From Scenedesmus sp. PABB004 (lineage: Eukaryota): a stretch of DNA of 64,000 bases. Below the pieces are notes generated by a model. That model was not told the origin of the DNA and searched no databases. It worked only from the letters and a program-made list of their open reading frames with translations. Each line of letters begins with the position of its first letter. Position 1 is the stretch's first letter. The stretch covers positions 2,418,001 through 2,482,000 of the forward strand of contig JABVCE010000002.1 of assembly GCA_014905635.1 (NCBI GenBank), in the 5' to 3' direction. Shown here piece by piece: positions 43,644 to 62,144 of this stretch. Made by a program: the position numbers and the translations under genes.

Positions 43644-46600
43644 ATGGTCGGGACGTGGGACTCGGTCAAGGAGAGCGAGTATGGGTGCGTCCCCGGCGCG
43701 CGACGTGCCCCCAGGGCGCGCAGGGTTGTCTGCTGCTGCTGCGATGCGAGCCCGCGGCGCGCCCCTGGCTCGCTGCAGGCGGCGCGGCGGCCGGGAGGGG
43801 CGCAGATCACGCCTGCCGACGTGTCGCAGGTACATCCGCAAGGTTTCGGGGCCCGTGGTGGTCGCGGACCACATGAGTGGGAGCGCCATGTATGAGCTCG
43901 TGCGCGTGGGAGCCGACTCCCTGATCGGCGAGATCATCCGGCTGGAGGGCGACACCGCCACCATCCAGGTGGGCGCCCGCACGCGGCGCGTGGGGGCCGC
44001 CGGCGCGCGCGGCGGCGCCGAGCGCGGCGCAGCAGCGGCGCGCCGCGCGGCGGCGCCGCGAGCCGCAGCTCCGCCGCCGGCGCCCGACGCCGCGCCCCGG
44101 CGGCGGCGCGGCGCCCGGGGCGCGTGATCTGGCGGCCGGCGCGGCGGCAGCAGCCGCGCGGGGCGGCGCGCTGCGGCGGCGGCGCAGCTCCGCCAGCGGC
44201 GCTGCCCCACCGCGCCGCGCCGCGCCGCGCCGCCGCGCCGCCGCCGCCTGCAGTGCTACGAGGAGACCGCCGGCCTCACCGTGGGCGACGTGGTGACGCG
44301 CACCAAGAAGGTATGCGCGCGCGCGCGGGTTCATCGGGACCGGGCACCCGGGGCCGGCCGCGCCGCCCGCGCCGCCCGCGCGCTGACGCGCGGCCCGCCG
44401 CCGCGCCCCCCCCCCTCTCGCAGCCGCTGAGCGTGCAGCTGGGCCCCGGCATCCTGGGCAACATCTTTGACGGCATCCAGCGCCCCCTCAAGGCCATCGC
44501 GCAGCGCAGCGGCGACGTGTTCATCCCCCGGGGCGTCGCCGTGCCCGCGCTCGACGAGACCGCGACCTGGGAGTTTGCGCCCACCGGCTTCAAGGCGCGC
44601 CGCCACGCCGCGCACGCCGCCGCGCGCTGCACGCCGCCGCCCCTCTCCCTCCCGCCCCGCGCGCGGCTCGCGAGCTCCGCCCCCCGGCGCTGCCGCTGCC
44701 GCTGCTGCTGCCGCTGCCCCGCAGGTGGGCGACCGCATCACCGCGGGCGACATCTATGGCGTGGTCAAGGAGAACACGCTCATGGACCACAAGGTGCCTT
44801 GCGGGGAGGGGGGGGGTGTTGGGGGTGCAGGGCTCGGGGTTGAGGGCGCCCCCCGCCTTTCGCCCCTGAACCCGCCGCAGCCAGCTGGGCTGCGGCGGGT
44901 TCAGGGTTCAGGGGCAGCCAGCTGGGCTGCGGCGGGTTCAGGGGCGCCCGGCGGGGGGCGCCCTCAGGGCTCAGCGAGCGCCAAGGCGGGGCGCGGGTGG
45001 TTGGTGACGAGGCCCACCGGGCTCGGGCCCCCGCGGCAGCGCGGCCCGCCCGGCCGACCCCCCCCCCCCCCCCCCCCCCCCCCGCGCCGCGCGCGCCCGG
45101 ACCCCCGCGCAGGTGATGCTGCCGCCGGGCGCGCGCGGCACTGTGAGCTTCATCGCGCCCGCGGGCGAGTACACGGTGAACGACGAGGTCATCGAGATCG
45201 AGTTCCAGGCGCGTGGGCCTGAAAAACAGGGGTTTAAACAAGGGTTCAGGGGCCCTCCAAGCCCTGAACCCCACGCCGCCCCGCCGCTGGCGCCCGCGGC
45301 GCGCGGCGCCAGCCCGGCACGGCAGGGCTGGGCCTGCCGGGCCTCTCTGCCGCGGCGGCGCCCACGCGCGGGCGCCCGCCTCACGCCGCGCCGCTGCGCC
45401 CACCTCACGCCGCGCCGCGTGCGCCGCGTCCGCGTGCCGCCGCGCCCCGCAGGGCGCGAAGAAGCGCTTCAGCATGATGCAGCTCTGGCCGGTGCGCAGC
45501 CCGCGGCCGGTCGCGCAGAAGATGCTCGCCGACACGCCGCTGCTCACGGGCCAGCGCGTGCTCGACGCGCTCTTCCCCGCGGTGCTGGGAGGTGCGGCGC
45601 GGGCGCGCGGGGGCGCGGGGGCGGGAGGTGTGTGTGTGCGTGTGCGTGTGCGTGTGTGGGGGGGGGGGTCTGGGGTGTGTGTGTCTGGGGAAGTCGGGCG
45701 CGGTCGCGCGGACGCCGGGGCGCCCGCCCGCCGGCGGCGCGCCGACGGGCCCGCCGGCGCGGCGGCGACCCCCCCCCCCCCGCCCCCGGCGCGCGCGCAG
45801 GCACATGCTCCATCCCCGGCGCGTTTGGGTGCGGCAAGACGGTGATCAGCCAGGCGCTGAGCAAGTACTCCAACAGCGACGGCGTCATCTACGTCGGATG
45901 CGGGGTGCGGCGGCCGCGCCGGCCGCGCCGGCGCGCGGCTCAGGGGTTTAGCCAGGGCCCTAAACCCTTGGGGGAACCCTCTGGACCGCAGCGGCGCGGC
46001 GGCGGCGCACCCGCGCGCGCCCGCGCGCGCCCACGCTGCCGCCGCGCCGCGCGCCCGCCTCAACCCTCAACCCTTGCGCCCCGCCCTCCCAGGAGCGCGG
46101 CAACGAGATGGCCGAGGTGCTGATGGAGTTCCCTCAGCTCACGATGTCGATGCCGGACGGGCGCGAGGAGAGCATCATGAAGCGCACCTGCCTGGTGGGT
46201 GTAGGGGGGGGGGTTGTTTGGGGTCTGGGGGTGCGTGTTTTGGGGGAGGGAGAGGGAGAGGGAGGGAGAGGCAGAGGGAGAGGGAGAGGAGGCGTGCGGC
46301 GCGCGCGCTCAGCGCACACACGCCTCCCCCCTCTTGCCTCCCCCTCAGGTGGCCAACACGTCCAACATGCCCGTCGCGGCGCGCGAGGCGTCCATCTACA
46401 CCGGCATAACGCTCGCAGAGTACTTCAGGCGCGCGCACGCGGCGGGGGGGGGGGGGGGAGGCTGCGCGCGGAGGCTGCGCGGCGGAGGCTGCGCGGCCGC
46501 CCTCGCCCATCGACCTCCCCACACACACACACACACTCTCTCCACTCACACGCACAACACCCCCCCCCCCAAAACCCCCCCCCCCCCCCCCCCCCCCCGC

Positions 46601-61400: not shown

Positions 61401-62144
61401 GTCGGACAACGAGCTGTGGCACGCGCTCGCGCTGGTGCACCTCAAGCAGGCCGTCGCCGACCTGCCGGGCGGCCTCGACGGCCCCGTGCTCGAGGGCGGG
61501 TCCAACTTCAGCCTCGGGCAGAAGCAGCTGGTGCGGAGCGGCGGCGCCACGGGCGCGCGCCATGCGCCCCGCGCGCCCCAGCGCGCCCGGCGCGCGGCCA
61601 ACGCCCGCCGCGCCGCCGCCGGCCGCGCCAGATCTGCATGGCGCGCTGCGTGCTGAAGCAGACGCACATCCTGGTGCTGGACGAGGCGACCGCGGCGATG
61701 GACCTGCAGACCGACCTGCTCATCCAGCGCACCATCCGCCGCGTCTTCCGCGGCCGCACGACGCTGACCATCGCGCACCGCCTCGACACCATCATCTTCA
61801 GCGACAAGATCCTCGCCATGGCGCAGGGCCAGGTGCGCGCGCGGCGCGGCGAGGGGGAAAGGGGCGCTCAGCGGGGCGCGCCGTGCGCGGCGCCGAGGCT
61901 GCGTCCGCGGCGGCCGCGGAGGCCCCCCGCCCGCGCGCGCGCCGGCGCCGCGCAGGTCAAGGAGTTTGACCGCCCCGCCGCGCTGCTGGGCGACGCGGGG
62001 AGCATGTTCAACAGCCTCGTCGAGGACACGGGGCCCGTGGCGAGCGCGATGCTGCGCCAGATGGCGGCCGCGGGGCCGGGCGACGACGCGGTCTCGGCGA
62101 GCGGCGGCCTCGCGAGCCGCCCCATGTCGCTCGAGCTCAGCTGA
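55409..62144 (+). CDS. ABCC/MRP-type full ABC transporter (TMD-NBD-TMD-NBD), HLA3-like, 19 exons
   Basis: NBD1: [39 protein letters not shown]2: [40 protein letters not shown]. Confidence 0.93.

Follow-up and report, generated by a model that had tools for sequence, protein, structure and literature searches.

GC-AG introns at donors preceded by exonic AG in three conserved genes of a GC-rich Scenedesmus contig

Introduction

In five model species, GC-AG introns account for 0.37 to 0.86% of introns, and their donors match the consensus better at the remaining positions, which compensates for the mismatch to U1 small nuclear RNA (snRNA) at donor position +2 (Sheth et al. 2006, PMC1557818). Much higher shares have been reported from algae: 39.6% in Aureococcus anophagefferens, 22.2% in Micromonas pusilla and 7.7% in Chlorella sp., where they were attributed to high G+C content and the putative 5' end of U1 was found to equal the consensus (Iwata and Gotoh 2011, PMC3033335), and 14 to 17% in pelagophytes (2024 preprint, bioRxiv 10.1101/2024.10.30.620910). 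In Emiliania huxleyi, 56% of 241 manually mapped junctions were GC-AG, nine GC junctions were verified by reverse transcription-PCR (RT-PCR), the use of GC-AG was tied to G+C content, and GT-centred gene finders mispredicted junctions (Feldmesser et al. 2014, PMC4028052). Here we describe a 64-kilobase (kb) stretch of DNA from Scenedesmus sp. PABB004 (GenBank assembly GCA_014905635.1, contig JABVCE010000002.1, positions 2,418,001 to 2,482,000; "the window" below means this whole stretch of 64,000 nucleotides) in which 15 of the 48 introns of three conserved genes are GC-AG introns, all of them following an exon that ends in AG.

Like Aureococcus, Micromonas, Chlorella and the pelagophytes, the window has normal AG acceptors and a GC-AG share that is higher than the usual 1% by a factor in the tens, and as in E. 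huxleyi GC is one of the main donor types and is paired with an acceptor AG. It differs from the former algae in lineage, which the best protein hits place as a Sphaeropleales-like chlorophycean, and in composition, its local G+C content of 79% exceeding that of their genomes. Moreover, the share in the window is an estimate from 48 introns, obtained by protein homology in one window and not from genome-wide transcript data. E. huxleyi, in turn, is a haptophyte of 65% G+C with a higher share and with junctions verified by RT-PCR, whereas the window is known from DNA alone. The strict rule that GC donors occur only after exonic AG, which holds in the window, is not described for those algae in the available portions of PMC3033335 or of the pelagophyte preprint. 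A literature search returned no paper linking "GC-AG" to Sphaeropleales and none relevant for Chlorophyceae. An earlier reading of this DNA (the first-pass annotation) had called GC-AG introns elevated in a few algal lineages; this is correct and understates the existing documentation. Earlier work has already described both the high GC-AG share of GC-rich algae and the compensation at the remaining positions of the donor, and the phenomenon described here is a new lineage example and not a new mechanism.

Splice junctions in three conserved genes

The window is eukaryotic and rich in introns. Its G+C content is 79.2% (C, 25,798; G, 24,895; T, 6,783; A, 6,524), with a range of 74 to 84% across 2-kb bins, and the dinucleotide GC occurs 13,867 times versus 2,144 times for GT, i.e., it is 6.5 times commoner. 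Because a GC beside a guessed exon end is cheap by chance, the junctions were tested by homology. Every donor and acceptor position near the exon ends was enumerated with no assumption as to the splice site, each joined product was translated, and the products were scored against homologues in summed BLOSUM units.

The homology-checked sample consists of the introns of three genes, all on the plus strand. The gene for the catalytic subunit A of the V-type ATPase (VHA-A; 43644..48764) has 17 exons and 16 introns, of which six are GC-AG, and its spliced open reading frame (ORF) comprises 618 codons with a single terminal stop; its junctions were obtained by tblastn and junction enumeration against the database protein P0026 and 12 further homologues. 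The gene for an ABCC-type ABC transporter (ABCC; 55409..62144) has 19 exons and 18 introns, seven of them GC-AG, with a spliced ORF of 1444 codons and again a single terminal stop; the homologues used were P0125 (70-92% identity per exon), P0126, P0130, P0134, P0136 and others. The 6-phosphogluconate dehydrogenase gene (6PGD; 30585..33995) has 15 exons and 14 introns, two of them GC-AG, and a spliced ORF of 567 codons with a single terminal stop. It lies outside 43644..62144, the interval to which the first-pass annotation had assigned its finding, yet its introns had been counted among the 48. The 6PGD homologues were mostly short fragments, and one mis-framed protein, P0250, was excluded from every homologue set. 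The closest protein relatives of VHA-A and ABCC are from the Sphaeropleales genera Tetradesmus, Monoraphidium, Raphidocelis, Scenedesmus and Chromochloris. The G+C content at third codon positions (GC3) is 0.958 in the spliced model of VHA-A and 0.972 in that of ABCC. The VHA-A introns contain homopolymer runs of C or G and (GT)n/(CA)n microsatellites, e.g., at 45060-45090, 45630-45680 and 46520-46600.

Of the 48 junctions, 45 could be scored, the figure for 6PGD being 11 of 14, with three junctions having no homologue segment. At each of the 15 GC sites, the sole GT-AG, GC-AG or AT-AC pair in the top-scoring set was the GC-AG pair, and the best GT-AG alternative was either 92 to 1228 units lower or nonexistent. 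Among the 30 scored GT junctions, GT-AG was in the top set for 25 and within 1 to 21 units of it for the other five. The GT junction at 58440, situated in an unconserved linker with one homologue, is ambiguous with respect to a GC-AG junction at 58464 and was counted as GT. The donor tally was thus 15 GC (31%) and 33 GT, the same count as that of the first-pass annotation, and all 15 of its coordinates were reproduced by the homologue-guided enumeration. These results indicate that, at the level of protein homology, the GC-AG junctions of the 15 sites are real.

In VHA-A, no GT-AG alternative was found for the intron at 44595..44724 (AAG/GCGCGC, the slash marking the exon-intron boundary; phase 0). 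For the remaining five introns of this gene, the best GT-AG alternative fell 419 units lower at 45209..45452 (CAG/GCGCGT, phase 0), 394 lower at 46429..46602 (CAG/GCGCGC, phase 2), 273 lower at 47078..47315 (CAG/GCGCGC, phase 0), 626 lower at 47465..47739 (CAG/GCGCGG, phase 2) and 973 lower at 48165..48385 (CAG/GCGCGG, phase 2). All seven GC-AG introns of ABCC follow CAG, and five of them share the donor CAG/GCGCGC. These five lie at 55556..55754 (phase 0; best GT-AG alternative 92 to 95 units lower), 58157..58286 (phase 0; no GT-AG alternative found), 58786..58878 (phase 2; 99 to 198 lower), 59144..59346 (phase 0; 303 to 489 lower) and 59497..59645 (phase 0; 112 to 140 lower). The other two, both of phase 0, are at 59784..59967 (CAG/GCACGC; 176 to 275 lower) and 60157..60275 (CAG/GCAGGG; 278 to 427 lower). 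The two GC-AG introns of 6PGD, also of phase 0, are at 33229..33354 (AAG/GCGCGG), where 54 homologue segments placed the best GT-AG alternative 1228 units lower, and at 33457..33596 (AAG/GCGCGC), where 17 segments placed it 660 units lower.

Sequence context of the GC donors

After exons ending in AG there were 15 GC and 17 GT donors, and after all other exon ends there were 0 GC and 16 GT donors (48 introns; Fisher P value = 0.00067). When the count was confined to 43644..62144, the corresponding GC and GT numbers were 13 and 9 after AG versus 0 and 12 otherwise (P value = 0.00065). The first-pass annotation had also found GC donors solely after exonic AG, with 15 versus 0 cases, and these counts were recovered; its totals of 31 AG-ending and 17 other exons were off by one and should read 32 and 16. 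By exon-end triplet, GC donors made up 12 of 20 after CAG and 3 of 8 after AAG, with none among the four donors after GAG or the 16 after triplets not ending in AG. Hence, positions -2 and -1 are A and G in 15 of 15 GC donors, compared to an AG ending in 17 of 33 GT donors, and position -3 is C or A in all 15. On the intronic side, GCGCG was present in 13 of 15 GC donors and GTGCG in 21 of 33 GT donors, which bears out the earlier remark that AG/GCGCG mirrors the prevalent GTGCG donor. The GC donors were also the more uniform class, with C at +4 in 14 of 15 and G at +5 in 15 of 15, versus 24 of 33 and 30 of 33, respectively, for the GT donors.

Eleven of the GC introns are in phase 0 and four are in phase 2, while none of the 10 phase 1 introns has a GC donor. 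Under the GC pressure, Gln and Lys are encoded as CAG and AAG, and Arg can be encoded as AGG, which yields AG/G when split by an intron; introns of phase 0 and phase 2 therefore often follow AG, and those of phase 1 rarely do. The absence of GC donors from phase 1 fits the coding constraint, A at the third codon position being rare (GC3 of about 96%).

The value of C/(C+T) was 0.85 in intron interiors and 0.93 in Y-ending twofold codons, compared to 0.31 (15 of 48) at position +2. At +2 it was 0.47 after AG and 0 after other exon endings. Since the value at +2 is far under 0.85 to 0.93, the T at this position is still selected, although less strongly after AG. None of the 15 GC donors has the U12-type sequence GCATCC; 13 read GCGCG, one reads GCACG and one reads GCAGG. 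Most probably, then, these are ordinary U2-type introns with C in place of T at donor position +2. General U2-type GC-AG introns and their compensatory donor consensus were reportedly set out by Burset and coworkers in 2000 and by Thanaraj and Clark in 2001. As in such introns, the +2 mismatch is offset in the window, by A and G at -2 and -1 and by G at +5 at every site. The window departs from them in frequency, i.e., 31% versus 0.4 to 0.9%, and in having GCG rather than AAG at +3 to +5.

Control junctions and ab initio prediction

A metagenome scan for VHA-A relatives yielded 80 loci with 54-81% identity, nearly all of them intronless or complementary DNA (cDNA)-like, and 10 with several high-scoring segment pairs. 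As a control, the same pipeline was applied to the VHA-A genes of these 10 loci (44-70% G+C, a range that stops short of the 79% of the window). It scored 36 junctions, of which 24 resolved to a canonical pair, and all 24 were GT-AG. Two of the control loci, L014 and L015, are apparently duplicates, which leaves about 22 independent junctions. Since all of the resolved control junctions were GT-AG, the pipeline does not invent GC donors.

The gene structures were also predicted with a purpose-written gene finder based on codon periodicity, with the tested gene left out of the training in every case. Because it over-predicts introns at weak intron penalties, a penalty of -10 was used; neighbouring genes were merged. 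The gene finder recovered 47 of the 48 introns exactly and made two extra GT predictions. When trained on the three genes, it placed 56 introns in a further 12 gene regions of the window, and the 52 that passed an exon-quality filter comprised 39 GT and 13 GC introns, a ratio that is model dependent. The association with AG among the predicted GC donors (12 of 13) is circular, as the training sites of the GC-donor model were themselves preceded by AG, and it was not used as evidence.

Orthologous intron positions and intron cores

The first-pass annotation had proposed that orthologous intron positions be compared for switches from GT to GC. This comparison was made with database "proteins" that are ORF calls running into introns, in which the first residue after a phase 0 exon end is V for a GT donor and A for a GC donor. 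At the 33229 site, the exon end is covered by 129 fragments, of which 42 keep the conserved sequence and 86 diverge, and the diverging fragments continue with V in 72 cases (GT), with A in 12 (GC) and with another residue in two. All 12 of the A fragments read A-R, i.e., GCNCG or GCNAG, resembling the GCGCG donor of the window. At the 47078 site, 25 fragments diverge, with 21 reading V (GT) and three reading A-R (GC), the remaining one being an exon-skipping model (P0021). For the remaining 13 GC sites, there were no read-through fragments from which the donor could be told. Thus, relatives mostly have GT at these two sites and a minority have GC. Judged from such fragments, the recurrence of GC in a minority against a GT background fits what repeated switching from T to C would predict. 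Since both intron positions are common to many GT-bearing relatives, these two introns are old. In addition, a chlorophyte-like metagenome contig (L019; 62.5% G+C, 232-2522), the single intron-bearing relative of this kind recovered in the scan, has two GT introns exactly at the positions of the GT introns 47839 and 48517 of the window.

When the 48 intron cores were aligned locally in all pairwise combinations, the maximal score was 22 to 23, compared to a maximum of 24 for shuffled cores. The mean scores were 12.6 for GC-GC pairs, 12.0 for GC-GT pairs and 11.3 for GT-GT pairs. As judged from this comparison within the window, the 48 introns do not stem from the recent copying of a mobile intron.

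Origin of the GC donors

The canonical 5' end of U1 is ACUUACCUG, the canonical U6 box is ACAGAGA, and exon positions -3 to -1 pair with U1 positions 11 to 9. We propose that extreme GC-biased substitution, arising from biased mutation, from GC-biased gene conversion or from the two together, would push the T at +2 toward C, and that this C would persist only where the remaining donor is strong. One requirement would be an exon end of (C/A)AG, able to pair with U1 positions 9 to 11; the second would be the GCG at +3 to +5 that is typical of the introns of this alga. At all other donors, selection would retain GT. That GC pressure erodes the T at +2 where exonic pairing can compensate had already been suggested by the first-pass annotation. 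This is the best-supported reading, and it agrees with published explanations.

Several observations weigh against this proposal. Use of the 15 GC donors in RNA is something that we infer from protein conservation alone, and the estimate comes from a single 64-kb window and is not a genome-wide one. The C at +4 is unpaired with canonical U1; pairing with U1 would account for the exonic requirement but not for the intronic GCG. Moreover, the GC-bearing relatives were not significantly GC-richer, as judged from the GARP content of the read-through tails (one-sided P value of about 0.10 at both sites). Finally, among the four introns that could be compared with L019, those nearest to the GC introns 47465 and 48165 are GT introns displaced by 4 and about 10 nucleotides, and therefore a simple change from T to C at a fixed position is not shown for these two.

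The same displacement from the nearest L019 introns would suit a different origin, in which the GC-AG introns would not have arisen by mutation of old GT introns but would be recent gains derived from transposons ("introners") that brought or created a GC donor. A gain of this kind would also suit the 46429 position, which is intronless in several relatives, the fragments P0007, P0008, P0010 and P0017 reading EYFRDMGY without interruption. There is precedent as well: according to a review (PMC11282704), GC-AG borders prevail in the introner-derived introns of Symbiodinium and Polarella, and M. pusilla, a species with a high GC-AG share, is where introners were first described. The high GC-AG share is indeed common to the window and to the dinoflagellate introner-derived introns covered there. 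However, the latter are copies of mobile elements, whereas the intron cores of the window are no more alike than shuffled ones, with GC-GC pairs not elevated, the intron lengths vary from 93 to 275 nucleotides, and the sharing of the 33229 and 47078 positions with many GT-bearing relatives makes at least two of the introns old. We regard an introner origin as very unlikely. It is still less likely that the GC-AG junctions are artefacts, whether of wrong models at the junctions, of transcripts that use other sites or of T-to-C errors in the assembly. The excess of GC over GT in the window does make a GC beside any chosen boundary easy to find, the apparent loss of frame at a (GC)n tract of the malic enzyme gene (see below) makes local assembly errors possible, and the junctions derive from protein homology rather than from RNA or raw reads. 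Nevertheless, the conserved protein was restored by the GC-AG pair alone at 15 of 15 sites, with GT-AG at a cost of 92 to 1228 units or nonexistent; there was no GC-AG junction among the 24 resolved control junctions; and 47 of 48 introns were predicted exactly by a gene finder whose training excluded the gene in question. Fifteen independent T-to-C errors, all at +2 and all after AG, are implausible.

A third alternative is that recognition of the 5' splice site is altered, by variant U1, U5 or U6 snRNAs or by U1 small nuclear ribonucleoprotein (snRNP) proteins, such that +2 is read loosely. A GC share of 31% versus about 1% in model organisms would be in keeping with this idea, as would the intronic consensus G(T/C)GCG, which differs from GTAAGT at +4, and Iwata and Gotoh left a role of base modifications or U1 snRNP proteins possible (PMC3033335). 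On the other hand, the T at +2 is kept in 33 of 48 introns despite a neutral C/(C+T) of 0.85 to 0.93, so that +2 is not generally loose, and the strict (C/A)AG before GC is what pairing with a normal U1 predicts. Altered recognition is also not needed, as the normal U2-type machinery splices GC-AG introns with compensation at other donor positions (PMC1557818), and in Aureococcus and M. pusilla the putative 5' end of U1 equals the consensus (PMC3033335). Altered recognition is thus quite unlikely, and the rewiring of the spliceosome that the first-pass annotation had envisaged has no support in the window and is contradicted by the precedent in comparable algae. A search of the 64-kb window with Rfam at gathering thresholds gave 0 hits, and no snRNA gene was found in it. 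An extended version of the hypothesis would have a quarter to a third of introns genome-wide be GC-AG, a higher share than has been reported for any other lineage of green plants, with near-deterministic CAG/GCGCG donors recognized through exonic CAG and intronic GCG by a changed U1, U6 or U1 snRNP protein and with +2 almost free; this too we consider unlikely. Substitution toward C under GC bias, tolerated at donors that are otherwise strong, is the explanation that we favour.

Implications for gene annotation

The expectation that standard gene finders mis-model such genes is plausible in view of two database proteins. In P0021, the VHA-A of Raphidocelis subcapitata (563 residues), the segment ending in LAIVQ is joined to the exon after next, and about 51 conserved residues of exon 13 (47316-47464 in the window) are missing. 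In the window, exon 13 of VHA-A has a GC donor on either side. The loss of this exon from P0021 is probably an annotation error due to GC donors in that genome. P0250, a 448-residue cluster representative, consists of genuine 6PGD pieces interleaved with out-of-frame stretches rich in Arg, Ser and Pro, and it looks like a mis-modelled gene of another very GC-rich genome. Gene finders restricted to GT would skip or truncate exons in this alga and its relatives, and annotation needs GC donors to be switched on. The window also offers a small, clean case of mutation pressure balanced against selection at a splice site. With a whole genome, the gradient of exon-end triplets from non-AG through GAG and AAG to CAG could be used to quantify the donor strength needed to lose the T at +2.

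Other genes and features of the window

A Pfam search with 79 predicted exons confirmed gene identities, and few junctions were checkable in this way. Exons of malic enzyme, PrimPol (with a UL52-like zinc finger), CobW, NAR2, FKBP, GATA, HSA and G-patch proteins were identified. Further GC donors had been reported in malic enzyme, PrimPol and other genes, and such donors were predicted ab initio at 1212 and 623 in malic enzyme, at 50874 in PrimPol, at 27612 in CobW and in others. Of these, the donor at 1212 is well supported by Pfam, the flanking exons being adjacent in the profile (39 plus 4 unmatched residues, then 44), and the remainder are not well supported; at the CobW junction 27612, the Pfam coordinates are only roughly contiguous. 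The predicted donor at 623 would join SNAF, R and LLARHG into what we take for the NAFR(F/L)L motif conserved among malic enzymes. The malic enzyme gene is partial, occupying 1-1439 on the minus strand and running off the window start (PF00390, PF03949). An intron predicted in it at 822-674 is probably wrong. It also has an apparent frame break of 1 nucleotide in the (GC)n tract at about 725-770, between DPRYRG and DYDAFVDEF, which reflects either an indel introduced in the assembly or damage to the gene itself.

Six further genes were recognized by Pfam, each from a single predicted exon. On the plus strand, these are a GATA zinc finger (3137-3760), a G-patch protein (22216-22587) and the NAR2 nitrate-transporter accessory protein (34788-35888). 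On the minus strand, they are an HSA-domain chromatin protein (4740-8878), a CobW-family GTPase (24219-27759) and a PrimPol-like primase with a UL52 zinc finger (49216-51267). Long repeats of the CAG/CTG type, which read as poly-Gln in predicted exons, are found at 5094-5777, 15160-15975, 51901-52464 and 54036-54206, all on the minus strand.

The octamer GGGTTTAG, which is telomere- or telobox-like, occurs in eight copies in the window, compared to 0.12 expected from shuffles. The copies are at 15020, 15046, 32210, 45944 and 46780 and, in minus orientation, at 32525, 45960 and 51112. All are intronic, lying in introns 8 and 9 of 6PGD, introns 8 and 11 of VHA-A and predicted introns of PrimPol and of a gene at 14731-17509 on the minus strand. 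They are situated in local AT-richer islands, and two pairs of them form short inverted repeats.

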